This document shows positions 13,779 to 42,182 of a stretch of 64,000 nt of DNA, piece by piece. Source of the DNA: Bacteroidota bacterium (GTDB lineage: Bacteria; Bacteroidota; Bacteroidia; AKYH767-A; 2013-40CM-41-45); assembly GCA_016720655.1 (NCBI GenBank), contig JADKKE010000032.1, forward strand, positions 182,383 to 246,382. The letters run 5' to 3'. The notes under the pieces were generated by a model. It was not told the DNA's origin, searched no databases, and was given only the letters and a program-made list of their open reading frames with translations. The number at the start of each line of letters is the position of its first letter. Position 1 is the first letter of the stretch. The position numbers and the translations under genes are program-made.

Positions 13779-16123
13779 TCAAGATATATTTTGTTTTTTC
13801 CGGATGTCTTCGATGGAAAGAAGAATCACTTCGTTGGTTGCAGGCAAACTAAAATGTGGTTCATATTCGTGGTTTCCTACAGCCGAAATTGCGTCCTTAA
13901 TGGCAAGCCATGAGCTGAAAGCCAGCATCAGTGGCGGCTCCGCAACGGCCTTGCTTTTCCGGATTGCATTCGGGTTCGGTGCATTTTGCAACAACTGAAC
14001 TCTGAAATCTTCCGGGATGTCCTGAACAGAAGGTATTTTGTATGTATCCGGAGAATGATTCAGTAAATTACCTTTTGCATCCCATTTGATTTCTTCTGTC
14101 GTACACCAGCCCAAGCCCTGAATAAAACCACCTTCAACCTGACCAATATCAATTCCGACATTGATCGAATCACCAACATCGTGTAATATGTCTGTGCGAA
14201 GATTTTTTACATAACCGGTAAGCGTATCCACCAGCACTTCACTCACAGCCATTCCAAAGGAGTAATAATTAAATGGTTTTCCCCAGCCTTTTGTTTGTCC
14301 CAACCGATGTTCGGTGTCGCATAGAAACCGGTTGCGCTCAGACTCACTTGTTTTAAATTAGCGAGTAACATTGCTTCAGCAAAATGCATGTTCCGATCGG
14401 GAAAACTGAGATCTGTAATAATGTCATTCTCAATCACGATATCTATTTCCCTCGAAGGAAAGTCAGGATCGATTTTGCTAAATTCATCGCACATGAGTTT
14501 CACAATGCGTTCGCGAAGCTTATCGATCGCATTTTTCACAGCCATTCCGTTCAAATCTGTACCTGCGGATGCTGCTGTAGCAGAAGTGTTCGGAACTTTC
14601 GAAGTATTGGTTGCATTGACTTTAATCCTGTCAAGGCTAACACCCAATTCAGCTGCAGCAATCTGAGCGATTTTGGTGTTCAATCCCTGACCCATTTCCG
14701 TACCGCCGTGATTTACGAGAATGGTTCCGTCTTTATAAATATTAACCAGAGCACCAGCCTGGTTGAGAAAGGTTGTAGTAAAGGAAATTCCAAATTTTAC
14801 AGGCGTAAATGCAAGACCTTTTTTGTAAAACTCATTCTTTGCGTTGAATGTATTGACTTCAGTTCTGCGTTTTGAATATTCAGAAGAAGCAGAAAGTTGA
14901 TCATACAAAACATGCAACCTGTTCAGTTCGACTTCCTGTCCGTAATGGGTGATGTTGTCTTTATCAATTCCGTAAAAATTGGTTTTGCGTACCAATGCAG
15001 CATCAATTTTTAAAAAACGTGCAATCCTGTCGATCACAGCTTCCATTCCGGCCATTCCCTGTGGTCCGCCAAAACCTCTGAAAGCCGTATTGGACGGGAG
15101 ATTGGTACGATAGGCTTTGCCAATCACCTGCATGTTGGGAATGAAATAAGAATTGTCGGCATGCAACATGGCTCGCTCAAGGATTGCCATGCTTAGATCC
15201 GTTGCACATCCGGCATCTGCATTTTGTTCAAACTTCAGTGCTACTATTTTTCCCGATGCATCAAAACCCGCTTCGTATTTGATCAGATAGCGGTGACGTT
15301 TCCCTGTGATTTTCTGGTCATCATCACGAAACAATCGAATGCGTACCGGACGACCTGTTGCATTGGCAAGCAGTGCGGTCCATGCAGCAGTATGATTGGC
15401 TTGTGTTTCTTTTCCACCGAAAGCACCGCCCATGCGACGAATTTCCACAACGACTTCGTTTTTTGGAATACCGAGAACTTCTGCAACAATCGCCTGGGTT
15501 TCGGATGGATGCTGAGTAGATGAATAAATATTCATTTCACGGCCTTCACCGGGTACAGCCAGACAGGATTGTGTTTCAAGGTACCAGTGTTCCTGCGCTC
15601 CTGTTTCCAGTTCGCCCTTGATGGTGTGCGGAGAAGTAGCAAGCGCTGCGTCAGCATCCCCTCTTTGCATCGCGCGGGGAGGAGCAAGCAGTGTTCCTTT
15701 TTCTATAGCAGTGCGAATGTCAAGCACAGGTTCGAGTATTTCGTATTCGATGACAACAAGTCTTGCGGCAGCTCTTGCCAGTTCTTCGTTTTCTGCAGCG
15801 ATCAGTACAATTGCATGACCTACACAGAGCACTTCTTTTTCAGCCAGACAAGGTTCATCGTGAATCACCGGGCCCATTTGATTGTGACCGGGAATGTCTT
15901 TGGCTGTAATCACAGCATATACACCGGGAAGCTTTTTTGCTGCAGAAGTATCAATCGATTTGATGCGTGCATGCGCATGCGGACTATATAAAATATGTCC
16001 ATGCAGGAGTTGCTCATTCACGAGCATATCGTCGATGTATACCGACTCGCCACTTACATGTTTACTTGCGCTATCGTGAGGAATATTTGTCATGAAAGGT
16101 TTAGTACCCAAATGGGCGATCAA
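13779..16123 (-). pseudogene. xdhB: Xanthine dehydrogenase molybdopterin-binding subunit XdhB, interrupted by a 1-nt frameshift in a poly-A run (may be a homopolymer sequencing error)
   Basis: ORFs 14243-16123 (626 aa) and 13779-14303 (174 aa) are consecutive parts of one about 800-aa Mo-cofactor subunit. Adding one A at 14289-14292 yields ...NIGWDKQKGWGKPFNYYSFGMAVSEV, as in intact XdhB. Confidence 0.8.
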
Positions 16124-17562
16124 TGTTGATGGGTTTCATCCCAGAATTTCAATACAAGGTTTCTTGCTGCCAGTCTGCGGAACTCCGCGCCGGATCGGGC
16201 ATCTGAGAGAGGAGTGTATTCTGAATAGACAAACTCACCAGCTTTTTCAGCATTTTCTCTTGTCCATTTTTTACCGATCAGAAATGACTCCGCAGATGTA
16301 GCTCTTTTTGTCTTCTCGGCCATACCACCATAAGCAAGAATGGCCTCTGAGATTTCATCGTTTTTAAATTTCAAACTAAATCCACTGCTGACTGTGGAAA
16401 TATCCAGGTCTTTGCGTTTGGAAACTTTATAAGATGATATTATTGAATCTTTATTCATTTTAGGAATAATGACAGCTGAAATAATTTCATTCCCTTGTTT
16501 CTGTGTCTTTCGGTAACCGATCACAAATTCGTTCATCCGAATTTCTCTTTTGCCACTAAGGCTCTGAAGTTCGATGCGGGCATTGAGCGCCATCAGTACC
16601 GGGAGTGTATCTCCAATTGGAGAAGCGCTACCCAGATTTCCTCCTAATGTGGCCAGCGAACGGATCTGACGGGAGCCAAAAACTGCTAGCATTTTATACA
16701 ATGCAGGAAAAGTGTGCTCAGTATTTTCTTTCACTGCTTCCAGACTCATACCGGAACCGAACACCATTTCATTGCTCTTATCTTGTAATGTTTTCAGTCC
16801 GCTTACTGCCGACAAATCCAAAATTTTCGGCAAGACTTCATGTTTCTTGGTTACGCGTAAAGCCACATCTGTAGCACCTTGTATCAGCAATGCATCCGGA
16901 TGCTCAGAGAGTAATTTCAAAGCTTCCTGTATTGATGTTGGTTGAAAATAGCTTTGCTCAGAGGAAGTATGGGAGAGCGCATTATTTTCCGAATGTATTA
17001 GTTTCAGTTTCTGAATCACCTCATATTCCATTTTTGAAAAATGATCAGTGTTTCCCTGAGCGCAGGCAGAGGAGGCCGCTTCGATGATGGGTCTATAACC
17101 TGTACAACGGCAAAGGTTCCCGGTGAGGGCATCACGGATGTCGTCCTGACTTGCCTGTTTATTTTCTTTAAAGAGCGCAAACAGTGACATCACAAAACCG
17201 GGAGTACAGTAACCGCACTGACTGCCATTTTTATCAACCATTTCCTGCTGAACCGGGTGGAGTTTCTCATCAGCTTTCAGGTTTTCCACTGTGAGCAGTT
17301 GTTTCCCATGCAACATAGGCATGAATACCAAACAGGAATCGATAGCGGTGTATTTCAGTTTGTTTGTTTCCGCGATTTCAGCAATCACAACCGTACAAGC
17401 TCCACAGTCTCCTTCGGCGCAACCTTCCTTGGTTCCTTTGTGATCTGATGAATTCCGGAGATAATTCAACACAGTGGTAGTAGGGTGAATCCCATTTGTG
17501 CCAATGGAAACCCGTTTGATTTCGCCGTCCTGTATAAATACGATTTCTGAGTTTTCCTTCAT
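16120..17562 (-). CDS. xdhA: Xanthine dehydrogenase small subunit (2Fe-2S ferredoxin plus FAD-binding domains)
   Basis: GCAEGDCGACTV, CGYCTPGFVMS and NLCRCTGYRPI iron-sulfur motifs, then an FAD-binding domain (ATLGGNLGSASPIGD). 4-bp overlap with xdhB. Confidence 0.85.
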   Translation of the reverse strand: MKENSEIVFIQDGEIKRVSIGTNGIHPTTTVLNYLRNSSDHKGTKEGCAEGDCGACTVVIAEIAETNKLKYTAIDSCLVFMPMLHGKQLLTVENLKADEKLHPVQQEMVDKNGSQCGYCTPGFVMSLFALFKENKQASQDDIRDALTGNLCRCTGYRPIIEAASSACAQGNTDHFSKMEYEVIQKLKLIHSENNALSHTSSEQSYFQPTSIQEALKLLSEHPDALLIQGATDVALRVTKKHEVLPKILDLSAVSGLKTLQDKSNEMVFGSGMSLEAVKENTEHTFPALYKMLAVFGSRQIRSLATLGGNLGSASPIGDTLPVLMALNARIELQSLSGKREIRMNEFVIGYRKTQKQGNEIISAVIIPKMNKDSIISSYKVSKRKDLDISTVSSGFSLKFKNDEISEAILAYGGMAEKTKRATSAESFLIGKKWTRENAEKAGEFVYSEYTPLSDARSGAEFRRLAARNLVLKFWDETHQH

Positions 17563-17807
17563 AGTTTGGATTGCTTCAAATTTAAGGAAAGAAATGAGAA
17601 CAAATTGATTACAGAAGCGAATCTTTAAAACAAGGTATACATTTATGCTTTACCTTTATTGTATGTTAGCGGTAAGTCAAATTATACATTGCCATATTTT
17701 TAATTTTTGAATTTGTTTTTTCAAACAATGGATTCTCCCAGGCATCAGCCGGATTCAAAGCAGGTGGTGGCTTATTCAATATCAATTCCGCCTTAAAAAG
17801 TGAAGCA

Positions 17808-18260: not shown

Positions 18261-18261
18261 A

Positions 18262-18453: not shown

Positions 18454-19071
18454 TTGAATACTAATGCTTTCGTAACTTGGCCCCGGAAAAGTAAAACGGT
18501 GGTCAACGAAGACACAAATATCTTACAGGCCTTAAAAAAAGGAGATGGAAAAGCCTATGAATCCTTATTCAGAAGCTATTACCAGCGACTTTGCAGCTAT
18601 GCCAATACATTATTGAATGACCCCGATGAATCCGAAGAAGTTGTACAACAGGTTTTTATTCAGGTTTGGGAAAGGAGGGAGGCGATGGAAATAAACATTT
18701 CTATTCAGGCCTACCTTTTTAAAGCTGTCCGAAATTCCTGTTTGAATAAATTGAAACACGGAAAAGTGCGGCAAATTTATGCGGAAGAAGTCACAGCTCT
18801 TGCCGGACAATCAGAACCTGCCAGTCAAATTACTTTGCAAAATGAATTGCAGGAACAAATCCATCGCGCCATTGAAAGTCTGCCTGAACAATGCCGGATC
18901 ATTTTCAAATTGAGTCGATTTGATGAACTAAAATACGCAGAGATTGCAGAACACCTTGGCATCTCAATTAAAACAGTAGAAAACCAAATGGGTAAAGCCT
19001 TGAAAGTAATGCGGGAGAAATTGAAGGACTATTTACCCTTACTCATATTTTTAATTTCATCATGCCTCTGA
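18454..19071 (+). CDS. RNA polymerase sigma-70 factor, ECF subfamily
   Basis: Region 2 (VQQVFIQVWERREAM) and region 4 HTH (ISIKTVENQMGKALKVMREKL). The next gene is FecR-like. Confidence 0.85.
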   Translation: MNTNAFVTWPRKSKTVVNEDTNILQALKKGDGKAYESLFRSYYQRLCSYANTLLNDPDESEEVVQQVFIQVWERREAMEINISIQAYLFKAVRNSCLNKLKHGKVRQIYAEEVTALAGQSEPASQITLQNELQEQIHRAIESLPEQCRIIFKLSRFDELKYAEIAEHLGISIKTVENQMGKALKVMREKLKDYLPLLIFLISSCL

Positions 19072-19075
19072 TCGC

Positions 19076-20081
19076 TTGAAAAACAAATTCGAAAATATCG
19101 AAGACCTGATAGCTAAATTCCTTGCAGGAGAAGCTAGTTCTGAGGAAATCCATATCCTTGAGGAGTGGAAGAATCTGCATGCCGATAATCTTCGGGAGTT
19201 TAATCAAATGAAGATGTTATTTACAGAAAGCGCGACATTGAAGCCCTTGCTTTCTGTGAATAGCGACAAAGCCTGGCTTGCAATTCAGCAAGCAATTCAA
19301 CTTGAGAAAGGAAGAGTGGTTCAGCTTCACAAACGAAGCAATTTGCAAACGGCACTAAGAATCGCAGCGATTTTCATTTTTATGGCAATGATTGGTGCGG
19401 TGATATATTTTATGACGAGTCCACTTGCCGGATCGGAACATGAAATTGCAACGGGTGATAGTATACAAAAAAAGTATGTTGCCGGATGGCAGCGAAATTA
19501 CATTTAATAAACACAGTTCAATTCAATATGCTTCAAATGCATATTCAAAAAAACGTGTTGTGAAATTAAAAGGCGAGGCTTTTTTTGACGTGAAACACAA
19601 TGAAACGGTTCCATTTATTGTTGAAGCAGGCGCACTTCAGATTCAGGATATCGGAACAGCTTTCAATGTGAAAGCACAGCAAAATTCCGGAATCATATTT
19701 GTTTCGGTTGTGTCCGGTGAGGTAAAAATAATAACTGCGGAAGATAAATCAATTCTACTTTCTGCCGGAGAAGCAGCATCCTATAATAGCGCAACCATGG
19801 AATTGAAAAAATCCGAAGAGATTGATAGAAACGCCTCTGCTTACAAGGATAAGATATTTATTTTTGAAAATGCAGAGTTAATCCACGTACTGAAAACCCT
19901 GAATGATATTTATTACTCAGACCTTCGAATAGGAGATGATAAAATTAGTTCATGTCGGATAACTGTTTCATTCAACAATGAGAAAATTGAAGATATCGCA
20001 GATGTCATTGCACTGACTTTAGGTCTCTCACTTCAAAAAAGTAATGGAACTATAACTTTTCATGGAGATGCATGCAAGTAA
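19076..20081 (+). pseudogene. FecR-family anti-sigma factor, split by a 1-nt frameshift in an A7 run
   Basis: ORFs 19076-19507 (N-terminal cytoplasmic part plus TM) and 19425-20081 (FecR domain LPDGSEITFNKHSSIQY...LKGEAFFDV...IGTAFNV). Adding one A at 19467-19473 gives ...GDSIQKKSMLPDGSEITF. Confidence 0.75.
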
Positions 20082-21883
20082 ATGTTCTTTGTATTTTCTG
20101 ATTCTTGCCCTGTTTTTGTTTTCCAATGAAATAAAAGCACAGATTCCTTTTCTGGAAAAGAAAATATCTGTGCAGGTCAGGAATTTACCTGTAGACGAAC
20201 TGTTGAAAATTATCTCTCAAAAAGGAGAGTTTACATTTTCTTATAGCACTCAATTAATACCGGAGTCAAAAACAGTTTCTGTACAAGTTCAAAATAAAAG
20301 TGTGCGTGAAATATTGGACCTTGTTTTTGAAGGAAAAGTGGCTTACAAGGAGAGAGGTAAACACATCATTCTACAAAAAGCTGAACTCTCAGCTCTTGGT
20401 AAGGAGCCTGAATACATCATTGTAAGCGGATATGTAAAGGATGCAACAAACGGCACCGAGGTTTCTCAGGTTAGTATTTTTGATAAACTCAGCAGGGTTT
20501 CAGCACTGAGTGATCAGTACGGATTTTTTACACTTAAAATAAAAATAAAGGATAAGTTCAGAGATGTGACCTTGTTTGTAAACAAAGAAAATTATCAGGA
20601 TACAATTGTGTATATTAATCAGAGCGGGCACTCTGTTCTTAATATAACAATGTATCCGGACGAGAAGATTGTGACCTACGTGGATTCATCTGCTATCCGG
20701 GATAGTATTTTTACAGTTAATCGACTGGCACTGGTGAACATGATATTAAGTGAGCAGGAGCAGGCCAATACGCGAAATATCAAAGATACATTGTATCGGA
20801 AGTTCCAGGTTTCATTCCTTCCCTATCTTGGTTCTAACCTGAAGTTGAGCGGAAATACTGTGAATGATTATTCATTGAATATTTTAGCGGGTTATTCAAT
20901 GGGAACAAAAAAACTGGAAATCGGAGGGCTGCTTAATCTTGATCGTGATTCAGTAAAGGTTGCGCAGATCGCCGGACTGATAAATATCACCGGAGGTCCT
21001 GTGCAAGGCGCTCAGGTTGCCGGTTTGATAAATTACAATCTGCGGCCTGTAAAATGTGTGCAGGTAGCCGGATTGGTCAATACGAATATGGATTCGGCCC
21101 GGGCGGTTTCCATAGCAGGATTACTCAATGTAAATCTCTCTCCCGCCAAAGGATTTCAAGTCGCAGGTCTTATGAATTTTAATCTGAAAACATCAAAAGT
21201 TGCGCAAGTAGCAGGCTTGATAAATGTCACCGCAAAGGGAATTCAGGGAGTACAGATTGCGGGTTTGATGAATGTTTGTCTGGATACGATTAAAGGCGGA
21301 CAAGTGGCCGGATTGTTAAACATTTCCAAAACAGTGATCGGATCCCAAGTTGGCTTTCTGAATATTTCAGATACATGTTCGGGAATTCCTGTCGGCTTTC
21401 TAAGTTTTGTCCGAAAAGGTCTGCATCAGTTGGAGATTTCTTCCAATGAGGTTTATCCACTCAACGTTTCTTTCCGTACCGGTGTACGACAATTCTACAA
21501 CATTTTCGAAGCGGGAATGCAATTCAAAACTCCGGAAGACCATACCTGGTATTTGGGTTATGGTGTGGGTACTGCCTTGTCGCTTAGTAATAATTGGCAA
21601 CTGGATTTTGATTTCACAATGAATCAACCGATCCGGGGCAATCGTTTCAATGAGTTTAATTCGTTAACAAAAATTAACATTGCAGCAGAGGAAAAAAATT
21701 GGGAAAGGATTTTCTATCGCTGCTGGACCAACATTAAATATATTATACGCAAATACTTCTGATCCTGACTACGAAGGCTATCTGAATCGTATTTCACCCG
21801 GAAGCTTTTCAAGTTCAAGTATTTCCGGGGATTACAAGCGAAGCATTTGGTTAGGTGCTAAAATAGGTTTGAGATTTTTCTAA
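20062..21883 (+). pseudogene. STN-domain outer-membrane protein with a CarboxypepD_reg-like domain, about 9 tandem approximately 20-aa AGL(I/M)N repeats and a C-terminal beta-barrel-type ending. It is split by a 1-nt indel in an A7 run
   Basis: Signal peptide, STN motif (ISVQVRNLPVDELLKIISQKGEFTFSY) and repeats VAQIAGLINITGGPVQGAQVAGLINYNL... The C-terminal piece (21680-21883) ends ...KIGLRFF. One fewer A at 21692-21698 gives ...AAEEKIGKGFSIAAGP. Confidence 0.5.
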
Positions 21884-25166: not shown

Positions 25167-25169
25167 TAT

Positions 25170-26627: not shown

Positions 26628-29600
26628 TTATTCTCGAATTAAAGTCAATCTTCCGGTTTCGATTGCATCACCACAAATAATTTTGAAGAGATATACACCA
26701 TCTGCATTTTCTTTTGCGTCCCATTTCACCAGATAAGTTTTGTCTTTTTCCATGGTTCCATCAAACAAGACTGCAACTTTCCTTCCATCCAGAGAGTAGA
26801 TTTCAATTCTGCCATTCTCAGAATCAAAATTATTTCGGAATTCAATTGTTGTGGTACTACTGAGTGGATTCGGGTAAGCAGTGACTACAAGTGCAGGCAA
26901 TGTTACTTTGTAAGTCTCACGAATGATTGTCCCTTCAGCATCTGTGATTTCAACTTCATATACACCTGGTGATGTTACATCAACCTCAGACGAAGTTTGT
27001 GAAGGGTCATTATTCCAAACGAAGGAATATGGAGCAATTCCTCCATCCACTTCTGCTGTGAGTGTCCGATCCTTTGGATTCAGTATCATCCTGCAATTTG
27101 ATCTGCATCTTGTTACTTGAACACAAGAAGTACTTGATCCGCATCCATTCGTGACTGTAACTGAATAGGAACCAGAGCAATTGACACTAATGCATCTATT
27201 GTGTGAACCATTACTCCATGTATATGAATAATTCGTACCGAGAGGAGCACACAGGGTGGTGGACTGACCAGAATTGTAACAGCGATTACCGGTGATAGTA
27301 CTTGAAGGACGTGAACCAGCTGCGATACAAATTGAAGAAGTGCTGCTGCATCCGCTACTGTTGGTTACAGTAACCGAGTAAGTTCCCGGACCATTGATAT
27401 TCAGGCAACGATTATGTGTTCCATTATTCCAGGTATAGGAATAACCTGTCCCACCGGCAACACATAAGGTTGAGCTTTGACCTGCACAAAGTGAAGCGGG
27501 CCCGGTAATGGTGCTGTTCGGTCTTGGATTGACAATAATCACTTTACTGCAAGTGCTTGAACAACCCGCTGAATTTGTCACGGTAACAGAATACGTTCCT
27601 CCGGTATTCACAGTAAGACAACGACCATGTGTACCATTGTTCCAGGTATAAGAGTAACCTGATCCGGCAGGAGCACACAAAGTAGCTGATTGTCCCTGGC
27701 AAATGGAATTGTTACTTCCGCATCCCGTTACAGATATGTTGCAAGATGGTCCAGCGCTTACATAAATTGTTTTGCTACATGTACTGCTACATCCACCAGC
27801 ATTCGTTACTGTAACACTGTATGTGCCGGCGGAAGTCACGGAAATACATTGTGTGCGCAATCCATTGCTCCACAGATAAGAATAGCCTTGTCCTGATGGT
27901 GCACACAACTGAACCGTTTGTCCCTGACAAATAGTGTTGTTGCTGCCACAACCGGTGGTGGTGATGTTGCAGGAAGGAATGGAACTTACATAAATGGTTT
28001 TGGTACATGTACTGCTGCAGCCACTGCTATTCGTTACTGTCAGCGTGTATGTTCCTGCTGCAGTAACACTGATGCACTGACTGTGCAGTCCGTTGCTCCA
28101 TGAATATGAATATCCATTTCCTGAAGGTCCGCACAACTGTACTGATCTGCCTTGACAAATAGTATTGTTGCTGCCACATCCCGTTGCTGTAATTGTGCAT
28201 GAAGGTGCCTGGCCAACTGAAATTGTTTTACTGCAAGTACTGCTACATCCGGTACCATTTGAAACTGTTACAGTGTAAGTTCCGGCCGTTGTTACGTTAA
28301 TGCATTGAGTATGCAATCCATTGCTCCAGTTATAAGTGTAACCGGAACCGGCAGGTGCACATAACTGAGCAGTTTGTCCCTGACAAATTGAATTATTATT
28401 CCCACAACCAGTAGCAGAAATTGTACAGGAAGGTACTGTCTTGCTACTAACTATTACATCAACCAAACTATCGCAATGCAGTGCAGTTGAATAGTTGTGT
28501 GAATAGGTTCCACCGGATGTGACCACTTGTCCCCATGGAAGAGTATAAGATCCACCCTGACAGAAAGAAGCAGTGCTTGATGTATGATAAGCAGCATTCA
28601 CGGTTATATTAATTGTAACGAGGCTATCACATCCTGCTTGCGAAGAATACGTGTGAGGATACGGGCCTGCACTTGTTGCTGTTCCGCCCCAAGGTAAAGA
28701 GTACGAACCACCCTGACAGATCGCATGTGATTCGGAAGTCGAATACGTTTGGTTTACGGTGATATTAATCGTTACCAAACTATCACATCCTGCCTGCGAA
28801 GAATATGTGTGTGGATACGGACCTGCACTTGTTGCTGTTCCGCCCCATGGCAATGGATACGAACCACCGTCACAAATCGCATGCGTTTCAGAAGTAGAAT
28901 ACGTTTGATTTACGGTGATATTAATCGTTACCAAACTATCACATCCTGCCTGCGAAGAATATGTGTGTGGATACGGACCTGCACTTGTTGCTGTTCCGCC
29001 CCAAGGTAAAGAGTACGAACCACCCTGACAGATCGCATGTGATTCGGAAGTCGAATACGTTTGGTTTACGGTGATATTAATCGTTACCAAACTATCACAT
29101 CCTGCCTGCGAAGAATACGTGTGAGGATACGGACCTGCACTTGTTGCTGTTCCTCCCCATGGCAATGGATACGAACCACCGTCACAAATCGCATGAGTTT
29201 CAGAAGTTCCACCGTCACAGATCGCATGTGTTTCTTAAGTTGAATATGTTTCCTTCACATCGTTATTGATCGCTTCCACACTATCACATCCTGCCTGTGT
29301 ACAGTTCGTGTGAGGATATGGACCGGCACTTGTTGCTGTTCCACCCCAAGGCAATGGATACGATCCACCGTCACAAATCGCATGTGTTTCAGAAGTAGAA
29401 TACGTTTGATTTACGGTGATATTAATCGTTACCAAACTATCACATCCTGCCTGCGAAGAATACGTGTGAGGATATGGACCTGCACTTGTTGCTGTTCCAC
29501 CCCAAGGCAATGGATACGATCCACCGTCACAAATTGCATGCGTTTCAGAAGTTGAATATGTTTGATTTACATCAATATTGATTGTTACCAAACTATCACA

Positions 29601-32600
29601 TCCTGCCTGCGAAGAATATGTGTGAGGATATGGACCTGCACTTGTTGCTGTTCCACCCCAAGGCAATGGATACGAACCACCGTCACAGATCGCATGCGTT
29701 TCTGAAGTTGAATATGTTTGATTTACATCAATATTGATTGTTACCAAACTATCACATCCTGCCTGCGAAGAATATGTGTGTGGATACGGACCTGCACTTG
29801 TTGCTGTTCCGCCCCAAGGCAATGGATACGATCCACCGTCACAAATCGCATGCGTTTCAGAAGTTGAATACGTTTGATTTACATCAATATTGATTGTTAC
29901 CAAACTATCACATCCTGCCTGCGAAGAATACGTGTGGGATATGGACCTGCACTTGTTGCTGTTCCACCCCATGGCAATAGATACGAACCACCCTGACAGA
30001 TCGCATGCGTTTCTGAAGTTGAATACGTTTGATTTACGGTGATATTAATCGTTACCAAACTATCACATCCTGCCTGCGAAGAATACTGTGAGGATATGGA
30101 CCGGCACTTGTTGCTGTTCCACCCCATGGCAATGGATACGAACCACCGTCACAGATCGCATGCGTTTCTGAAGTTGAATATGTTTGATTTACGGTGATAT
30201 TAATCGTTACCAAACTATCACATCCTGCCTGCGAAGAATACGTGTGAGGATACGGACCTGCACTTGTTGCTGTTCCGCCCCAAGGCAATGGATACGATCC
30301 ACCCTGACAGATCGCATGCGTTTCTGAAGTTGAATACGTTTGATTTACGGTGATATTAATCGTTACAAGACTATCACATCCTGCCTGCGAAGAATATGTG
30401 TGAGGATATGGACCGGCACTAGTTGCTGTTCCACCCCAAGGCAATGGATACGAACCACCGTCACAGATCGCATGCGTTTCTGAAGTTGAATATGTTTGAT
30501 TTATGGTGATATTAATCGTTACCAAACTATCACATCCTGCCTGCGAAGAATAAGTGTGAGGATATGGACCTGCACTAGTTGCTGTTCCTCCCCAAGGCAA
30601 TGGATACGATCCACCCTGACAGATCGCATCGTTTCTGAAGTTGAACACGTTGATTTACGGTGATATTAATCGTTAAGACTATCATCCTGCCTCGAATAAT
30701 GGCGGATGGACCGGCACTAGTTGCTGGTCCACCCAAGGCAATGGATACGAACCACCGTCACAGATCGCATGCGTTTCTGAAGTTGAATATGTTTGATTTA
30801 TGGTGATATTAATCGTTACCAAACTATCACATCCTGCCTGCGAAGAATACGTGTGAGGATACGGACCTGCACTTGTTGCTGTTCCTCCCCATGGCAATGG
30901 ATACGATCCACCGTCACAAATCGCATGTGTTTCAAGTAGAATACGTTTGATTTACGGTGATATTGATTGTTACCAAACTATCACATCCTGCCTACGAAGG
31001 ATACGTATGAGGGTATGGACCTGCACTGTGTGCTGTTCCACCCTAAGGCAATGGATACGATCCACCGTCACAAATCGCATGTGTTTCAGAAGTTGAATAT
31101 GTTTGATTTACATCAATATTGATTGTTACCAAACTATCACATCCTGCCTGCGAAGAATATGTGTGAGGATACGGACCGGCACTAGTTGCTGTTCCTCCCC
31201 ATGGCAATGGATACGATCCACCGTCACAAATCGCATGTGTTTCAGAAGTTGAATACGTTTGATTCACTACTAGTTCAGTTGTAATCGTACTGTCACAACC
31301 AGCTTGATTCGGAATATGAGTGACATACGTACCTGCTGTTGTCTGTGCTGTGCCCCCTGGTGGAGTATAACTTTGTCCAAGACAAATTGGAACAGTTGTA
31401 TTGCTGCTGCTGTTCGCGGTTGATAAAGTCACATAAGCGGTATCTCTTCCGATACAACCATTGAGAGGATTCGTTACTGTGAGAACATAGGTTCCGACAG
31501 CATTAACAGTTGGAGTCGCTGAATTTGGATTCAGGGAAATATTTCCATCTGTTGTCGTCCATGCAAATTGTGCATTTGCTGTGGTCGATGAACCATCCAG
31601 AGTTGTACTTCCGGCTACACAAAGGAATTGTTTATCCTGACCTGCATTTGCATTCACAACAGGTGGTTCAGAGATTGTAAAAATATTGCTCGCGGTACAA
31701 TTCCCGTTGTCTGTAACAGTCACTGTATAGGTTCCTGGTGCGAGACCCGATAGAGTTTGAGTATGATCTCCCGTATTCCAGTCATATGTGAATGGAGCAA
31801 CGCCATCTGAATGTGCAGTGATGGATCCATCGTGAGCGCCATTACAGGTAACATTGTTTACATCGGCGGTAACTGTTACAATTCTCACTGTAACCACCTG
31901 GTCAGCGGCACCGGCAAGAATACAGGCATCGCCACCAATGATCCGTCGGAAGAAAGTTTTTACATACAACTGGCCGATTGTGGCACCGGGAAGGTCTTGA
32001 GCATTGGCACCACTGATCGGATCCCAGTTTATACTGTCAGTACTAATCTGCCATTGATAGGTTGTAGCCGAAGGCAATGCAGGATAGGGAGAAGTAACAC
32101 CATGTCGAATAATCGTCGGCAGGACATACGCTGGAATGGAACCCGGTAAATCATCTGGGATAGTTCCCGCACAAATCGTCTGGTTACCCGTAATAGTATT
32201 TCCGAGCAGGTCAGGAGGATTTGCCCAAACAACTAAACCCGGTTCATATGGAGTAGTACTCACGCGAGTCGTATTGAGTGCACCTTGTGTAAGTGGAATG
32301 TTATTCGATTTGGAAGTAACAATTGTATAAATCCTGCAATTGTAAAATTTAATTCCTCTTTCTCCAACAGGATCATAATCATCACCGGCTCCACCATAAT
32401 ACGTACTGAACAAGAGTTCTGATAAGTCTGATTTTAATTTACAAAATATCTTATCATTGTTTCCAAGATTTGTTGTTTGCAATGGAACATTCGGGCTTGT
32501 TGTTACGGGAAAGTTGGTACTGTTGGTATATCCAAAAATATACACATCATTGTTCAAATCAGTATTCAATCCCATCATGTTCACTTCGTTTGCACTTCCT

Positions 32601-34516
32601 CCCAGATAGGTAGAAGAAACAAAGTTTTGATTGGTATCCATGCGACATACAAAAAAGTCATTTGTTCCGGTATTGTAACCGTTGTCATATGTACCGGAAG
32701 CTGAAATATTCGATGCTGCCAGTCCGCCTGTGATTCCACCAAAATACAATTGAGTTTTTAGTGTATTGAATTCCATGCATAGAATAGAAGTTGACTTACC
32801 ATTCGCTGATTGAAAGTAAGAAGACCACACAGTGGAACCTAAAGAATTCAATTTTTGAATAAAACCACTTTGCGTTCCGCCCAGTGTTGCTTGTCTTGGG
32901 GATGTGGTAGGGAAATTTGGTGAATCAGTGTAACCGGCCACGAAAATATCCTGGTTTGAAATATTTTGTAGCATGATTGTCGCCTGATCGGTACCGCTTC
33001 CGCCATAATTTTTCATCCATGAAATAGCGCTGAGATCCTGATTGATTTTGAACACAATCACATCAATTCCTGAATGACCATTACTTGCACCGGTAGATGG
33101 ATAGAGAGTAGAAAGATTTCCACTAGCAGTATTTCCACAAATTACTACATCTCCAGCTTCGTTGATACGTAAATCGAAGGAACCATCATCACCATCGCCA
33201 CCAATAATCGAACTCTTGATGGATTGACCATCCTGAGTGATTTTCATGATAAAAATGTTATCCGTGGCCTGATTGCTTTGATTAATGCTTGATCCGCTGA
33301 ATGCTGATCCGCCGATCAATGGAAAATTGGTGCTTGATGTGTATCCCGTGATGTAAAGATTTCCATCCGGTCCTTGTTCCATTGCATATGGGTTGTCATC
33401 CTGGTTTCCTCCAATATAAGTTTGCCATACGCGAACACCCGGATCACCAATAGTTCCCGGTTCTGTGTATTTCCCAACAATCATTTCAAGATTTCCGTTA
33501 GCGGATACATCAAATGCGCCTACGGTAATCTGATCTGTAGTACCTACAACACGAGCAACCATGTAGATTGCACCGTCATTTGGATCAACCCAGATACAGT
33601 GACCATGGTTGTCTCCACTTGAATTTGTGTTCACCCAGGTAGCCCAACGCAAGGCAATCGGATCGATGATCAGAGGTTGATTTTCATCGTATTCACCCAA
33701 TTGAAATTTTAGTGTATTGTGATTGGATACAACATATTTAGCTACAACTTCTTTTTGAGTTCCATTTATCTTTTGATAGACAACGGGTGAAGGGAAGTCC
33801 ACATCACCAACACTGGTATGCATAATCAAGTGTCCATTTTCCTGAACATCCATCTGTTCAATACCATCAAAACGAATTGCGATTTGTGAATTATCAAATC
33901 CTGGTTTACAAACAATGTCATACTCAAGAGTTCCTTCTGCAGAGGGATAATATCTGACATCTACATTCGGATAAACATTATTGTACCAGATTTCTCCGTA
34001 ACTGTTCACATGTGTGATCGACTGATTTCCTGAAAAGAAATTTGCAGGATCGGAGTGAACATCTTTACTGGTGATTGTCATTGATGTAGAATGATTCAAA
34101 AAATTCATCATCCAGCCATGCCCCTTCAACCCGGTTGTAAGTCTGCGATGAATGCCTGTTTCCTGCATTATTTTTTCGATCTCTATACCTTCAGCTTCCC
34201 GTGCAGCGATCGAAGCAGGATCGTATGTTGCGATCATCATTCCATCCTTTGTTGCCACTGCTTTACCGAGAGGAAAGTCTGCCTTATACAAAGTTGGCTC
34301 AGAAAATTGTCCTTTGTTCTCTGTAAAATAGATTTGCTTTCCATAGTATTTAAGCATGTCCTCGATGGCTTCGCTATGGCCATTTTGTTCCTGACTTCCG
34401 CTTTGTGCAGAAAGCTGGAGGCACTGGAGGACAAGTAAAGTGAATGATGCAAAAAATAGTTTGCAATGCATCTTTACATTCACAACTTTTTGATGAAATG
34501 TAGTTTGTGTTTTCAT
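26628..34516 (-). pseudogene. Giant (about 2600 aa if contiguous) T9SS-secreted cell-surface adhesin-like protein. Domains are signal peptide, SBBP beta-propeller repeats, SprB repeats, 18 copies of a 52-aa tandem repeat, 6 copies of a 75-aa Cys-bracketed Ig-like repeat, and a T9SS C-terminal sorting domain. The reading frame is broken in the repeat array
   Basis: N-terminus at 34516 (MKTQTTF...SFTLLVLQCLQLSAQ). C-terminus ...YPNPLSSTTTIEFRN...DGVYLFKIICGDAIETGRLTLIRE is a Por_Secre_tail. SprB repeat: VTCNGAHDGSITAHSDGVAPFTYDWNTGD...TVTVTDNGNC. The ORF fragments 31043-34516, 30682-30897, 30052-30648, 29897-30127, 29235-29972 and 26628-29165 all encode the same repeat. Confidence 0.7.
28440..31270 (-). 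repeat. Intragenic tandem array of about 18 copies of a 156-bp (52-aa) unit with near-identical DNA. The unit is PWGGTATSAGPYPHTYSSQAGCDSLVTINI(T/D)VNQTYSTSE(T/S)HAIC(D/Q)GGSY(P/S)L
   Basis: Period read directly from the sequence: gatattaatcgttaccaaactatcacatcctgcctgcgaagaata... recurs every 156 bp. The copies at 30600-31040 carry many small indels and substitutions. Confidence 0.85.
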
Positions 34517-36809: not shown

Positions 36810-38813
36810 TTAATTCCTGCTTAATTTCTTAAATGGATTACTAAAGTTTTTGTCAGAAATAAAAACCGAATCACTAAGTGTTTTCAAAAAAGCTATAATA
36901 CTTTGCTGTTCTTCTTTGGAAAGATTTGCTCCATGTTTATTTGCAAATTGCATCTTTGAATCCAAATTCACACAGTTCTTTACACCGGAACTATAGAACT
37001 CAAGAACTTCTTCGAGGGTCTTGAATCGACCATCATGCATGTAGGGTGCTGTGAACAATAGATTGCGTAGAGATGGAATTTTGAATTTTCCGATGTCTTC
37101 TTTTTTTTCTGAAATTCCTCCTCTTCCTTTGTCAGGATAAAACTGAACATCGACAACTGAGTCAAGTCCATTGTTGCTAAAAGTTAATGTTGTTCCTAAA
37201 GCATCTCCGTCAGTGGGATGACAATGCAGACAATCGCCTTTTGTTTGATCGTTCACCAAAACAAAACCTTTGATCTCATTTTCAGTAAAATGATCTTTCC
37301 CTGCAATGACCCTGTCATATTTAGATTGATTGGATAAAAGACTTCGTAGAAATTGTGAAAGAACATTTGAAACTTTTTCGCTGTCAATTTCTCCGGCACC
37401 AAAAATTTCCTGGAACAAAGATTTGTAATAGTTGTTTTCATTAAGTCGATTGCAAAGATCTTCGGGGTGCATATTCATCTCATCCGATGCTGTGATAGGG
37501 TGAAAGACCTGATTTTCGATTCCTGTAGCTTTTCCATCCCAGAAGAATGAAGGATACCAGGCAAGATTGAACAAGGGCAATGTATTTCGCGTCATGAATA
37601 CACTGTTTTTTCCTTTACTGAATTTATTCGGTGCATCACTGAAAGCATACTTCTGCTGATGACAAGATGAACAGGATAGGGTGCTGTCTGAGCTCAGGAT
37701 GGGATCATAAAAAAGTTGTCTGCCCAAATTAATTCCCTCATCCGTGATTGTGTAATGAATTGGCAAAGGCATTTCCGGAAAGAATTTCATTTCCGGAAAT
37801 GCATGCGGACTGAGACCGGATTTAGCTCCAAGGAAAAGGAGTGAAAGTACGATCAATTTCAACCCTGGTTTCGAGAGTTGTTTGATCCTTGTAGAATTCA
37901 TCGTTGAATCAGCAAAGGGAATAGTTTCAGACTGAATATTGGTCTTGACTTTCAGGTAGTACATTCCGTTGGCGAATTTGCCGGTGTCGAACCAGAATTT
38001 AGTAGGAACATTCGTCCATTTTTTTACCAACTCTCCGGTTGAATTGATAAGTTCCATGTCTTCAATGATGTGATAGGCAAGTACTTTTCTTGCTTCAACG
38101 TGCACAATCTCTCTTGCCGGATTCGGATATACGTTTAGATAATTTGCCTGGTCCTTTTCCTTGATCGTGTGAATTAAAGTAATACTCGACCACATGTTGT
38201 CAATGAGCCATCCTTCCTTTTCACTATTGACAGAATCGCTTAATAAACTGAACCGTGCCAGGACGGTGTCAGGAAAAGTACTCATCCACGACAAATCAAA
38301 ACACAGCCAGATGTTTTTCCAACTTGAATCCGTACCACTGAATCCGATTTCTCCGGAAGGAAGTGTGTCAACATTTGCGGTATCAAAACCATAGAAATTG
38401 TAAACGTAAGCATTGTTGAATGCATTCTGCCAACTTAGGCCGTGGTCAATAGAAAATTCAATTGTTCCAAGATCACCACTAGAATCAATATCCAGTTTTT
38501 GTAACCATTGAATCGCCAATATTCCCCACCAGAACTGATTTAAAACATTGAAAGTAAACCTGCTCGTATCATTCACAGGATAATAATTCAAAGTATCTGT
38601 TACAATAGCATTTGGTGCAGTCGCTGCACTGTCAAAGATTATTTTCTGTGGATGTCCGATTTGCCAAACATTTGATACGCTTGTATCGGTTTCGATGAGT
38701 ATTGAGTTCTGTATAGAAGTATCAGCTCCATCAAAATATTGTGTAAAAAATTGAGCAGTTGAAATTTGACACGAGAAAATAAACAAGATGATAAATGTGT
38801 ATAATTTAGCCAT
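36810..38813 (-). CDS. In-frame fusion or read-through. A roughly 300-aa N-terminal module with signal peptide and T9SS C-terminal sorting domain is joined to a di-heme cytochrome c peroxidase (CCP/MauG family) that has its own signal peptide and could start at 37901
   Basis: T9SS tail NYLNVYPNPAREIVHVE...ANGMYYLKVKTNIQSETIPF at aa 225-300. After 4 residues follows MNSTRIKQLSKPGLKLIVLSLLFLGAK (signal peptide), then CSSCH, CLHCH and PSLRNLLFTAPYMHDGRFKTLEEVLEFY. There is no stop codon between the modules. Confidence 0.65.
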   Translation of the reverse strand: MAKLYTFIILFIFSCQISTAQFFTQYFDGADTSIQNSILIETDTSVSNVWQIGHPQKIIFDSAATAPNAIVTDTLNYYPVNDTSRFTFNVLNQFWWGILAIQWLQKLDIDSSGDLGTIEFSIDHGLSWQNAFNNAYVYNFYGFDTANVDTLPSGEIGFSGTDSSWKNIWLCFDLSWMSTFPDTVLARFSLLSDSVNSEKEGWLIDNMWSSITLIHTIKEKDQANYLNVYPNPAREIVHVEARKVLAYHIIEDMELINSTGELVKKWTNVPTKFWFDTGKFANGMYYLKVKTNIQSETIPFADSTMNSTRIKQLSKPGLKLIVLSLLFLGAKSGLSPHAFPEMKFFPEMPLPIHYTITDEGINLGRQLFYDPILSSDSTLSCSSCHQQKYAFSDAPNKFSKGKNSVFMTRNTLPLFNLAWYPSFFWDGKATGIENQVFHPITASDEMNMHPEDLCNRLNENNYYKSLFQEIFGAGEIDSEKVSNVLSQFLRSLLSNQSKYDRVIAGKDHFTENEIKGFVLVNDQTKGDCLHCHPTDGDALGTTLTFSNNGLDSVVDVQFYPDKGRGGISEKKEDIGKFKIPSLRNLLFTAPYMHDGRFKTLEEVLEFYSSGVKNCVNLDSKMQFANKHGANLSKEEQQSIIAFLKTLSDSVFISDKNFSNPFKKLSRN

Positions 38814-39042: not shown

Positions 39043-40233
39043 ATGCGCAAAGTGAACCTTTTTATTTTCATTGCATTTTGCCTGACTTCTTGTCTTCAGA
39101 ACACATCGGAAAAAGTAAATACCAAAGCAAGCGCAGTAGAATCAGATGAAATGGTTCTAGCGCCGGGCAAATCCGCTATGCGTTTGCTGACAGATCGTCC
39201 TCCAAATCTGGAAACTCCTTTGCATTACTTTTTAATGGACTATACTCCCAATGATGTTTTCTTCGTGCGCTGGCACATGTCAAATCTTCCTCCTGAAATT
39301 GGAACAGATACATTTCGATTACGGGTCGGAGGACATGTAAAAAATAATGTGGAACTATCGTTAAATGATTTGAAAACGAAATTTACGCCGATCTCAATAA
39401 CTGCTCTTGCGCAATGTGCCGGCAATTCAAGGAGTTTTAATGACCCCCATGTACCGGGTGGACAATGGAAAAACGGTGCGATGGGGAATGCGAAGTGGAC
39501 AGGAGTAAGATTGTCGGACGTACTGAAAATGGCCGGAATTAAAAATGGTGCTGTTGACGTTTCGTTCAATGGCATTGATGATCCGCCATTACCCGGAACT
39601 CCTGATTTTGTAAAATCACTTCGTCTCGAAAAAGCAATGGACGGAGAAACCATGATTGCATATGAAATGAATGGCGAGCCATTGCCATTGCTCAATGGTT
39701 TTCCGTTGAAACTTGTAGTACCGGGTTGGTATGCGACTTACTGGATTGGAATGTTAAATGATATTACTGTCCATGCGGATACATTTGCCGGCTTTTGGAT
39801 GAAAAAGGCATACCTCGTTCCCCAAAATAACCGTGACGGAAATGAAAATCCGGATAGCCTTTCACAGAGCATGGAGCCGATAAACAAAATGAACGTTCGG
39901 AGTATTTTCGTCACTCCTGAGCCGGATAGTTTGATTCAGACCGGAAGTATTTGTGAAATACAAGGACTTGCTTTTGATGGTGGTGATGGGATTCAAAAAG
40001 TTGAATTGTCTGAAGATAATGGGAAGACATGGAAAGAAGTTAATCTTGATGCTGTGCTTGGAAAATATTCCTGGAGAAGATGGCGCTATTCCTGGAAAGC
40101 CAATACGGCAGGAACATATATTTTCAAAATAAAAGCAACAAACACTCTTGGAGAAACACAACCCGAGCATCATTGGAACAGAAGTGGATACATGCGAAAT
40201 GAGATTGAAGTATTAAAGCTGGAGGTAAAGTAA
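39043..40233 (+). CDS. Sulfite-oxidase-family molybdopterin oxidoreductase (SorA-like sulfite dehydrogenase catalytic subunit) with lipoprotein-type signal
   Basis: ALAQCAGNSRSFNDPHVPGGQWKNGAMGNAKWTGVRLSDVL contains the Mo-ligand Cys motif of the SO family. There is a C-terminal Ig-like dimerisation domain. Confidence 0.65.
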   Translation: MRKVNLFIFIAFCLTSCLQNTSEKVNTKASAVESDEMVLAPGKSAMRLLTDRPPNLETPLHYFLMDYTPNDVFFVRWHMSNLPPEIGTDTFRLRVGGHVKNNVELSLNDLKTKFTPISITALAQCAGNSRSFNDPHVPGGQWKNGAMGNAKWTGVRLSDVLKMAGIKNGAVDVSFNGIDDPPLPGTPDFVKSLRLEKAMDGETMIAYEMNGEPLPLLNGFPLKLVVPGWYATYWIGMLNDITVHADTFAGFWMKKAYLVPQNNRDGNENPDSLSQSMEPINKMNVRSIFVTPEPDSLIQTGSICEIQGLAFDGGDGIQKVELSEDNGKTWKEVNLDAVLGKYSWRRWRYSWKANTAGTYIFKIKATNTLGETQPEHHWNRSGYMRNEIEVLKLEVK

Positions 40234-40581
40234 ATGAGTATGAAATATGTCTTATTTATTTTTATTTTCTGGATGATGCAATCGATCTTTTGTTCTTGTT
40301 CAGAACCAACAACAAAAGTTGAGACTACTGACGGACATGATGCTGTGCTTTCTTTGAGTGATGCCGGTTATCATTTGCCCGATCGTCCGGGTTATGATTT
40401 GTTTTTATCCAATTGCGGTGTTTGTCATTCCTACAGATATATCCAGATGCAACCCAATTTCTCACGTAAGACATGGGAGAAAACCGTGGATAAGATGATT
40501 CATACTTTCGCTGCCCCAATACCGGATTCTTCCGTAATTCCTATTGTAGATTACCTCATGGCAGTTCGCGGAAAGAAATAA
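40234..40581 (+). CDS. Monoheme cytochrome c (SorB-like electron-acceptor subunit)
   Basis: Signal peptide and a single CGVCH motif in 115 aa. The start codon abuts the sorA-like stop. Confidence 0.55.
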   Translation: MSMKYVLFIFIFWMMQSIFCSCSEPTTKVETTDGHDAVLSLSDAGYHLPDRPGYDLFLSNCGVCHSYRYIQMQPNFSRKTWEKTVDKMIHTFAAPIPDSSVIPIVDYLMAVRGKK

Positions 40582-40728
40582 ACCAAAGAAAATCATTTCA
40601 CAACACAACCACTGCGATTCCGTTTTATTGAATAAAATGAGTAAAAGTTGTTTTGAAGAGAATACAAAGCATTAAAACTCTCCTATCTACACTCAGCAAA
40701 TATTAAATTCGGATCCATTTGTCTACCC

Positions 40729-40808
40729 CAACTCATAATTCTTAACTCATAATTCTCAACTCATAACTCATAACTCTCAACTCATAATTCTAAATTCATA
40801 ATTTATTT
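40729..40808. repeat. ACTCATAA(T/C)TC heptamer-based tandem repeat in an intergenic spacer
   Basis: aactcataattcttaactcataattctcaactcataactcataactctcaactcataattctaaattcataattt. Confidence 0.8.
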
Positions 40809-40827
40809 CTGCCAAGCAGAACATTGA

Positions 40828-42182
40828 ATGTCTAAAAATACCACTCCTTCCGGACTGAAACGTGAACTATCCCTTGTCCAGGCAACGGCGATTAACATGA
40901 TTGATATGGTTGGAATTGGTCCCTTCATCGTATTGCCCTTGGTGATAAAAATGATAGGAGGGCCTCATTTTATTTTTGCCTGGATTGTTGGTGCAGTGAT
41001 TTCCCTGGTGGATGGAATGGTTTGGGCAGAACTTGGGAGCAGCTTATCCGAAAGCCGGAGGGAGTTATAATTTTTTGAAGGAAGCGTATGGGAGAAAAGG
41101 AGGGAAGGTGCTTTCGTTTTTTATACGTGTGGCAGACACTAATCCAGGCTCCATTAGTTGCAGCAAGCGGAGCGATTGGTTTCGCACAGTACTGCACCTA
41201 TTTGTACCCCTTCACACCTGTTCAGCAAAAAATGGTTTCAGGGAGTATCATCATTTTATTGGTGTTCTTTCTTTACAGGAAAATTGAAACCATTGGAAAA
41301 ATCAGTGTAATGTTATGGGTTGCAGTTCTTGTGACCATTAGTTGGATGATCTTCGGAGGAATCACCTCTCATACGATTTCGAACAATTGGATTCCGGATA
41401 ATCATTCTGATTTGTTCGGCAGTTTGTTTTTCTTTGCGCTCGGACAAGCATCTGTAAAAACTATTTACAGTTATCTTGGGTATTATAATGTTTGCCATCT
41501 TGGCGGAGAGATCCGCAATCCAGGAAAAAATATTCCACGAAGTATTTTCATTTCTGTTTTCGGTATCGCTTTCCTTTATCTCGCCATGAATATCAGTGTT
41601 GTGAGCGTGATTCCATGGCAGGAAGCACAGAATTCTACTTTTATCGTGAGCACCTTCATTGAACGAATTTATGGCCATCAAGCTGCAGTAATAGCTACCG
41701 GTTTGGTACTTATTGTTGCGTTTTCCTCCTTGTTTGCTGTGTTGCTCGGTTATTCCCGCATTCCGTATGCAGCAGCAGTGGATGGACAATTTTTTCCTGC
41801 ATTTGCGAAACTTCACCCAACAAAGAATTTCCCTCATATTTCATTGCTCTTCCTCGGAGGTGCCGCATTTATCTTCAGTCTGCTTTTTAAGTTAAGCGAT
41901 GTAATTAGTGCGATATTGGCCATGAGAATTCTTGTTCAATTTATCGGACAAGCAATTGGTGTTATATTACTGCGAAAGAGAAACGGAACGGCACATCTTC
42001 CGTATAAGATGTTCTTATATCCACTCCCTGTTATCCTTGCGATTTTAATCTGGATTTTTATTTTCGTCTCAACTGGGTGGAAATTCGTACTTTCAGGGCT
42101 TACTGTGATGTCAATAGGGGTAATCGTTTACTTGCTAATGCCTCCTTTTAAGCCGGAAAGCCGGGCTGGTGAGGTAAGATAG
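40828..42182 (+). pseudogene. APC-family amino-acid permease disrupted by two frameshifts
   Basis: Three consecutive ORFs encode one permease: ...MVWAELG / AAYPKAGGSYNFLKEAYGRKGGKVLSF / LYVWQTLIQAPLVAASG.... The first shift is near 41035-41038 (an extra a in ggga). The second is an extra T in the T6 run at 41117-41122. Confidence 0.7.

Follow-up and report, generated by a model that had tools for sequence, protein, structure and literature searches.

Eight single-base indels break eight genes in the unique (non-array) sequence of the 64,000-nucleotide stretch of DNA analysed here (the window), and a large adhesin gene is fragmented as well. Our results make it highly probable that these frameshifts are residual consensus errors of a long-read metagenome-assembled genome (MAG), most likely one built from nanopore R9.4.1 reads. 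The breaks are present in the sequence, but each of the genes is intact in independent assemblies of that species, and the broken forms are therefore almost certainly consensus errors and not biology. The organism almost certainly has intact xdhB, OMP, fecR, STN, adhesin, T9SS-tail/peroxidase, permease and T9SS-cargo genes. The first-pass annotation had counted six or more disrupted genes in 64 kb, which held up with eight genes outside the array plus the adhesin, and had ascribed them to systematic homopolymer miscalling. The artefact of an error-prone platform is supported, but this wording is too restrictive, since long homopolymers do not account for five of the eight indels in unique genes or for most of the breaks in the array. 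The indel sites outside the array are 14289, 17676, 19467, 21690, 37914, 41035, 41117 and 62314.

The xdhB gene (xanthine dehydrogenase molybdopterin subunit; 13779..16093, minus strand) is split into ORFs of 616 and 174 aa, and Pfam MoCoBD_2 covers it as profile positions 2-191 and 190-283 on two separate ORFs. The break falls in the A-run where it had been placed before: the run at 14289..14292 (minus strand) is T4, or A4 in the gene sense, one base short of the T5 of eight relatives. Addition of one T at 14289-14292 gave a continuous MoCoBD_2 match, and the repaired ORF has the relatives' length of 771 aa, with 766 residues identical. The fecR-type anti-sigma gene (19076..20081, plus strand) is split into ORFs of 143 and 218 aa, and the A7 run previously blamed for it (19467..19473, plus strand) indeed holds a one-base insertion, being A6 in 10 relatives; the repaired ORF reaches the relatives' 334 aa. 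The STN/CarboxypepD_reg outer-membrane protein gene (20068..21883, plus strand) ends at 564 aa instead of 604. Together with the permease described below, these genes had been reported as four cases of homopolymer indels, and all four are frameshifted, but the STN indel adjoins its A7 run (21692-21698) and is not inside it. That run has an equal length in all eight relatives, and the extra base is a G just before it (21690..21691, plus strand; GG vs a single G in 8/8 relatives). The repaired STN protein matched P0001 (604 aa) over the full length and was identical to that of L002 at 603/604 residues. One more break, absent from the first-pass annotation, is an extra G at 17676 (TAAGTCA vs TAATCA) in the OMP beta-barrel gene (PF13568; 17645..18260, plus strand); it lies outside any homopolymer, and its repair restored the relatives' length of 204 aa.

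The 667-aa ORF at 36810..38813 (minus strand) artificially joins two genes, one for a 304-aa T9SS-tail protein and one for a 363-aa cytochrome-c peroxidase; this break too had been overlooked. The fusion site (37914..37919, minus strand) reads AAAGGG and has one base too many; the relatives compared have AAGGG in seven cases and AAAGG in one (L014). At 38019, a T6 vs T7 frameshift allele is common to two short-read assemblies, and real frameshift alleles do occur in the population. The APC-family amino-acid permease gene (40828..42182, plus strand) is broken over three frames, and both frameshifts proposed for it were found. The first is one extra base at 41032-41035 (CTTGGGA vs CTCGGA); over 41032..41037 (plus strand) the window reads CTTGGG and relatives read CTCGG or TTAGG, and the extra base adjoins a synonymous polymorphism. 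The second is the T6 at 41117..41122 (plus strand), which is T5 in 13 relatives. The repaired permease covered Pfam profile positions 1-409 and had the relatives' length of 450 aa. The gene for a T9SS-secreted protein (62036..63265, minus strand) ends at 352 aa instead of 409. It is broken as had been claimed, at position 62314 and not at about 62285: the window has AA at 62314..62315 (minus strand), and 10/10 relatives have a single A (GAATTT vs GATTT). Its repaired ORF is again as long as in the relatives, at 409 aa.

The comparison with independent assemblies, which had been proposed as a check on the artefact explanation, was run with ENA MEGAHIT/SPAdes, Logan and JGI assemblies and NCBI MAGs, giving 8-14 relatives per site, and every frameshift proved private to the assembly of the window. 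At every indel site the gene was intact on about 55 contigs of independent origin from the same species (nucleotide identity 96-99.5%), and none of the 8-14 relatives per site shared a frameshift. Each of the eight one-base repairs produced an ORF without internal stops that is exactly as long as in the relatives and 96-99.8% identical to them at the amino-acid level. In a collection of 15 billion proteins, five truncated or fused proteins (STN, xdhB, fecR, T9SS cargo and the 667-aa fusion) were found on a single contig only, a 1,052,241-bp contig of an NCBI MAG (MBL0258576-MBL0258613, locus tags IPQ03_*), and intact versions of the tested proteins were found on up to 51 contigs. The search of genome contigs with XdhA gave only a 75%-identical contig of 3.4 kb that ended short of the xdhB site, and exact look-ups of XdhA, a 439-aa urate-oxidase-like protein and a DUF2807 protein matched no contig. 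Private coding frameshifts number 8 in 54.7 kb of the window, a rate of 1.46 per 10 kb, vs 0.11 per 10 kb in short-read contigs (3 in 264.8 kb; P = 7e-5), where all three were alignment-end effects. In the sibling MAGs with long contigs the rate was 0-2 per 10 kb, with the private frameshifts at sites other than those of the window; a single sibling reached 16 per 10 kb.

It was also considered whether the frameshifts are real pseudogenes of one strain, made by recent single-base indels, for example in a mismatch-repair-deficient mutator lineage. The window comes from a strain of its own, with 0.5-4% divergence from each of the relatives, homopolymer indels are the commonest frameshift in nature too, and the allele at 38019 in two short-read assemblies looks natural. 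Against this, eight independent and very recent inactivations would be required in 54.7 kb, in genes that are unrelated, with two hits only 82 nt apart within the permease; sibling long-read MAGs carry similar private frameshifts elsewhere, and 265 kb of short-read contigs carry effectively none. Nor is selection relaxed. Window-private substitutions gave a pN/pS of 0.081 where genes are intact; in the broken genes the value was 0.124 on the upstream side of the breaks and 0.072 on the downstream side. Fisher tests for relaxed selection in broken vs intact genes were not significant. Downstream of the breaks there were 16 synonymous and 4 non-synonymous changes vs the neutral 1:3.45 (P = 8e-8), with xdhB supplying 15 of the 16 synonymous changes. 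These data show that the window-private substitutions are under purifying selection even past the breaks, a result with which very recent real mutations are compatible. Nonsense codons were absent from the unique genes, and in-frame stops were confined to the repeat array. We therefore regard real pseudogenes as very unlikely, with broken genes no more relaxed (0.07-0.12) than intact ones (0.08). We give slightly less credit still to the proposal that the indels mark a recent mismatch-repair-defective mutator strain of this uncultured activated-sludge Bacteroidia (order AKYH767-A, midas_s_300); if true, such a strain would be shedding genes of purine catabolism, iron signalling, transport and adhesion via single-base indels. 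A decaying genome, which the first-pass annotation had listed as a less favoured option, fails because of the same pN/pS values, the lack of nonsense codons in unique genes and a coding density of 91%.

The second of these less favoured options was slipped-strand phase variation, in which A/T tracts would switch surface or regulatory genes such as fecR, STN and the adhesin. The products of fecR, STN, OMP, the adhesin and the T9SS cargo gene do have envelope or surface functions, and A6/A7 tracts are involved at two sites. As in simple-sequence contingency loci, the changes are one base in length and touch A/T tracts and envelope genes. In contrast to such loci, no tract is longer than a mere 7 nt, non-surface genes are hit too, and xdhB and the permease would be atypical phase-variable genes. 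The STN change lies outside its tract, as do five of the eight indels with respect to any tract. Phase variation fails because tract lengths are uniform among the 8-14 independent assemblies at every site, and we consider it highly improbable.

The bias toward homopolymers is real and limited. Only three of the eight indels (xdhB, fecR and the permease T-run) fall in A/T runs of at least 5, which make up 3.6% of the coding bases (P about 0.002); four more lengthen runs of just 1-2 bases, and the last lies outside any run. It had been suggested that long A/T runs might be under-represented in intact genes. No such depletion was seen, because among the 33 coding A/T runs of at least 7 in the window only the fecR run disagrees with the relatives; the match of the other 32 also speaks against phase variation. 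Insertions account for seven of the eight indels in unique genes; nanopore errors in homopolymers, by contrast, are usually deletions. Window-private changes of intergenic homopolymer length were seen at 42923, 43321, 43325 and 45308. Those who favour real pseudogenes may note that these could be true variation.

Programmed ribosomal frameshifting or transcriptional slippage could in principle keep the affected genes functional, and A7 runs are able to support low-level transcriptional slippage. Programmed frameshift sites, however, are shared by related genomes. Here the frameshifts are absent from every relative and most of the sites are without a slippery sequence, so that this explanation has next to no probability.

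The densest errors were found in the adhesin gene, where the claim of frameshifts in the repeat array was confirmed with at least six breaks, to which three in-frame stops (W->*, Q->*, S->*) are added. This SprB/SBBP-type T9SS adhesin (26628..34516, minus strand) would be one large gene of about 2,629 codons and is now at least six ORFs. Each homologue is encoded by one ORF (1,700-2,000 aa) and has a Por_Secre_tail domain, and in a sibling MAG the gene is called at 2,364 aa. The tandem array (28596..31264, minus strand) has 17 units of 156 bp (52 aa). Its breaks, at 30933, 30086, 29936, in the patch 30630-30734 and elsewhere, are mostly 1-2-nt deletions outside homopolymers, and the patch lacks about 13 nt. 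Among the relatives, only the sibling L048 overlaps the array, in part, and it is itself error-prone; it has bases that are absent from the window and CAG vs the window's TAG at 30994. Some of the array differences, such as a stop and a 33-bp duplication near 29230, may be genuine. When the adhesin N-terminus was used to search for homologues, no same-species full-length protein was obtained (best match, 76% identity), and look-ups of the GT87 and cytochrome genes yielded, besides one error-prone sibling, only short-read contigs that stop at the array. Nine short-read contigs end at the array edges (28695-29003 and 31220), and the window spans the array, which implies long reads.

These features resemble tandem repeats that cannot be polished in hybrid assemblies, as the densest and most varied errors lie in the 17 x 156-bp array where short-read contigs stop; the likeness differs in that the array was compared with the one error-prone relative, over part of its length. 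The frameshifts as a whole also resemble the consensus indels of nanopore R9.4.1 assemblies (the 'IDEEL' problem), in which single-base indels split conserved genes, are enriched in homopolymers, worsen at low coverage and do not appear when the population is assembled from short reads. The sibling MAGs from a documented nanopore pipeline behave in this way too. The window differs in that its unique-sequence indels are mostly insertions with three of eight in runs of at least 5, and in that several of them lie at or beside strain polymorphisms (37914, 41035), which may point to mixed-strain polishing artefacts over pure homopolymer miscalling.

The cause of the errors is inferred, and so are the platform and the coverage, which are taken from the sibling MAGs and the accession series. 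Two sibling MAGs belong to the set of Singleton et al. 2021, which was assembled with CANU on nanopore reads and polished with Racon, twice with medaka r941 and once with Racon on Illumina reads. Their coverage was 12x nanopore with 6.3x Illumina and 11x nanopore with 3.7x Illumina, and the sibling with the lowest Illumina coverage had the most indels. It was reported that below about 40x, indels in the nanopore consensus fragment gene calls (PMC9262707). The source MAG probably had low coverage of a mixed-strain population with only partial short-read correction. The errors left in unique sequence would be single-base indels that fall partly in A/T homopolymers and partly next to strain polymorphisms. 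Short reads cannot be uniquely placed in the 2.7-kb array, so that the raw consensus there would keep all types of error: 1-2-nt deletions, substitutions and spurious stops.

The value of this finding is practical, and no new biology is revealed. The public annotation of the MAG carries truncated or fused proteins (MBL0258576, MBL0258580/81, MBL0258582, MBL0258593 and MBL0258613), including the artificial 667-aa fusion annotated as a 'T9SS sorting domain' protein. The broken genes should not be taken as pseudogenes, as fusions, or as loss of xanthine dehydrogenase or FecR signalling. The case also shows that hybrid-polished nanopore MAGs of low coverage hold residual errors beyond long homopolymers; these errors concentrate in tandem repeats and perhaps also where strains are polymorphic.

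The indels are also clustered, with two in the permease 82 nt apart, three within 4 kb (17.6-21.7 kb) and a dense patch in the array, which is consistent with a locally low-quality consensus. The surroundings of the frameshift sites were dense in SNPs at nominal significance (P 0.01-0.03), an association that we treat as weak because two sites (17676 and 41035) drive it. An extra T at 18492 near the start of the sigma-factor gene, first counted as a frameshift, was rejected since it is common to two Logan assemblies and lies upstream of the conserved protein. Paired indels at 62571-62581 cause no disruption and form a net-zero substitution cluster.

The window (about 40% G+C, coding density 91%) contained same-strand ORF pairs in places where one gene was expected. 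About 55 same-species contigs were retrieved with exact-protein look-ups from ENA MEGAHIT/SPAdes, Logan and JGI metagenome assemblies and NCBI MAGs; they were 96–99.5% identical to the window and spanned almost all of it except a repeat array. All alignment gaps were mapped to window coordinates and private indels were listed. This comparison with independent assemblies, a check that the first-pass annotation had proposed, gave eight coding indels, all private to the window. Single-base repairs at the eight sites produced ORFs of exactly the relatives' lengths (xdhB 771, OMP 204, fecR 334, STN 604, T9SS-tail/peroxidase 304 + 363, permease 450 and T9SS cargo 409 aa), with no internal stops and 96–99.8% identity. 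We consider it very probable that the frameshifts are an assembly or sequencing artefact and not a biological feature.

The homopolymer breaks reported earlier in xdhB, fecR and the permease were confirmed. In xdhB, the window has T4 at 14289–14292 where relatives have T5, and Pfam MoCoBD_2 was cut at profile position ~190 between ORFs 14243–16123 and 13779–14303; one added T made the domain continuous (profile 2–283). For fecR, where relatives have A6 at 19467–19473, shortening the window's A7 by one base united the N-terminal and FecR-domain ORFs. The permease lay in three reading frames, and deleting one base at 41035 (CTTGGGA; relatives CTCGGA) and shortening T6 at 41117–41122 to the relatives' T5 restored an APC permease spanning Pfam profile 1–409.

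The disruptions described in the first-pass annotation are real, with some details imprecise. The gene of the STN/CarboxypepD_reg outer-membrane protein is frameshifted as claimed, but by an extra G at 21690 (GG versus a single G) beside the A7 run, which is unchanged in relatives. After correction there the protein is longer and ends in "...RFF", as outer-membrane barrels typically do, and the repaired 606-aa sequence matched the 604-aa protein P0001 end to end. In the T9SS cargo gene, the shift is at 62314 (GAATTT; relatives GATTT), not at about 62285, and the Por_Secre_tail-like C-terminus sits in another frame. Two sites were new. An extra G at 17676 (TAAGTCA; relatives TAATCA) deprives an OMP beta-barrel gene of its start and signal peptide, and an extra base at 37914 (AAAGGG; relatives AAGGG, or AAAGG in one), 13–16 nt ahead of the stop of the T9SS-tail gene, joins it to the overlapping cytochrome-c peroxidase gene.

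An extra T at 18492 was rejected as a private frameshift and treated as a real polymorphism, since two Logan assemblies have it too and it is located upstream of conserved sigma-factor sequence. At 38019, two independent short-read assemblies (L011 and L017; ENA k141_34864, JGI Ga0070403_11069) share T6 where the window has T7, and in both the T9SS-tail gene call has 286 aa instead of 304; T6 may be a real frameshift allele that occurs naturally in the population.

Systematic homopolymer miscalling, as first proposed, describes this pattern in part. Three of the eight indels fall in A/T runs of true length at least 5, a class of run that accounts for 3.6% of coding bases (P = 0.002); four of the other five extend runs of 1–2 bases and one is outside any run. 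Among the window's coding A/T runs (33 of at least 7, 99 of 6), the fecR A7 and permease T6 alone were discordant with relatives. Homopolymers are therefore over-represented among the errors, while any one homopolymer is seldom miscalled. The AAAGGG at 37914 looks like the AAGGG and AAAGG alleles of a SNP written in tandem, and 41035, 21690 and 17676 fit likewise. The pattern is suggestive of polishing artefacts at strain polymorphisms in a mixed-strain population, an idea to which a neighbourhood SNP-density test was weakly favourable. Seven intergenic indels were also private to the window (35114, 42923, 43004, 43321, 43325, 45308 and 60761), and are either errors or real variation. Four of these shorten A/T runs with a true length of at least 5 (42923, T8 to T7; 43321, T5 to T4; 43325, A6 to A5; 45308, A7 to A5); the intergenic indels lean to deletion, whereas the coding ones lean to insertion.

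Private coding indels of length not divisible by three numbered 8 in 54.7 kb of the window (1.46 per 10 kb), against 3 in 264.8 kb (0.11 per 10 kb) of short-read contigs (P = 7e-5), all three being alignment-end effects. Long-contig sibling MAGs showed 0–2 per 10 kb at positions different from the window's, and JADJDN, with the lowest Illumina coverage, 16 per 10 kb. The breaks were clustered (the permease pair 82 nt apart, three within 17.6–21.7 kb, a dense patch in the array), as would be expected of local low-quality consensus. Real strain-specific pseudogenes are improbable: pN/pS of window-private substitutions was 0.081 in intact genes, 0.124 upstream of breaks and 0.072 downstream, where 16 synonymous and 4 non-synonymous changes (neutral 1:3.45, P = 8e-8), a signal dominated by xdhB, indicate purifying selection even past the breaks, and no nonsense codons were found in the window's unique genes. 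Phase variation would put tract-length differences among relatives; none occurred at any of the sites, which makes it very unlikely. Programmed frameshifting is more improbable still.

The truncated STN (MBL0258582), xdhB (MBL0258576), fecR (MBL0258580) and T9SS cargo (MBL0258613) proteins and a 667-aa fusion (MBL0258593) were found in NCBI by exact look-up, with locus tags IPQ03_* and the annotation "MAG: ... Bacteroidetes bacterium". A 1,052,241-bp contig is the only one that carries them, and the intact counterparts are on up to 51 contigs. Sibling MAGs share the tag and accession style of the IPQ03 MAG. Two of them, JADIZO and JADJDN, are listed by Singleton et al. 2021 (Supplementary Data 3) in species cluster 169_1 (Bacteroidia order AKYH767-A, midas_s_300), with Illumina/nanopore coverage of 6.3x/12.2x and 3.7x/10.8x; their nanopore reads passed through CANU, Racon, two rounds of medaka (r941 model) and one of Illumina Racon. 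We infer that the IPQ03 MAG was sequenced on the platform of this pipeline. According to Sereika et al. 2022 (PMC9262707), indels in a nanopore consensus lead to gene calls with frameshifts; they put the requirement at ~40x coverage or polishing with short reads. Frameshift errors differ from one public MAG of this species to the next: JADJDN (GCA_016702675.1) has indels throughout, with xdhB in six pieces, and in GCA_963852685.1 an indel cluster at window 16560–16834 splits xdhA.

The minus-strand ORFs at 26628–34516 are fragments of a single SprB/SBBP-type T9SS adhesin, whose homologues are one ORF each of 1,700–2,000 aa (2,364 aa in a sibling MAG call). Every break lies in a tandem array of 17 x 156 bp (28596–31264, minus strand), and unit-against-unit comparison bore out the frameshifts noted there earlier: a 2-nt deletion at 30933, single-base deletions outside homopolymers at 30629, 30086 and 29936, a G4 to G3 deletion at 30734, about 12 nt absent at 30675–30707, and three in-frame stops. 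The sole relative overlapping part of the array, a contig of the error-prone JADJDN (L048), retains bases absent from the window at 30630–30734 and 30934, and reads CAG for TAG at 30994. Nine short-read contigs end close to the edges of the array, a few hundred bases away at most (28695–29003 and 31220), so the window assembly must presumably rest on long reads. A 33-bp partial duplication at 29214–29246 (ETHAICDGGTS/ETHAICDGGSY), after a divergent unit and an in-frame stop, could be a real sub-array junction or a misassembly.

The minus strand at 9137–17562 carries a complete-looking purine/uric-acid catabolism cluster (xdhA, xdhB, Urate_ox_N protein, amidohydrolase, allantoicase, OHCU decarboxylase and transthyretin-like HIU hydrolase), and an XdhC gene lies at 110–763. 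In xdhA (16120–17562), 45 synonymous and 20 non-synonymous substitutions private to the window (65 in 480 codons), a density several-fold above neighbouring genes, may mark a recombination tract; a net-zero indel cluster at 16711–16721 is absent in 7 of 9 relatives. In the ABC transporter region (48665–53943), the two assemblies with T6 at 38019 (L011, L017) carry 49753–53943 inverted and joined at ~48665, with the transporter shortened to 693 aa and PAP2 adjacent, as a result of either a rearrangement at strain level or a misassembly common to both. Two NCBI MAGs (GCA_017988015.1, GCA_020051655.1) align at 48810–48933 with a 124-nt overlap and ~100 unaligned bases, which may reflect local duplication or misassembly in those records, and their ABC-transporter gene is split into 787 + 271 aa.
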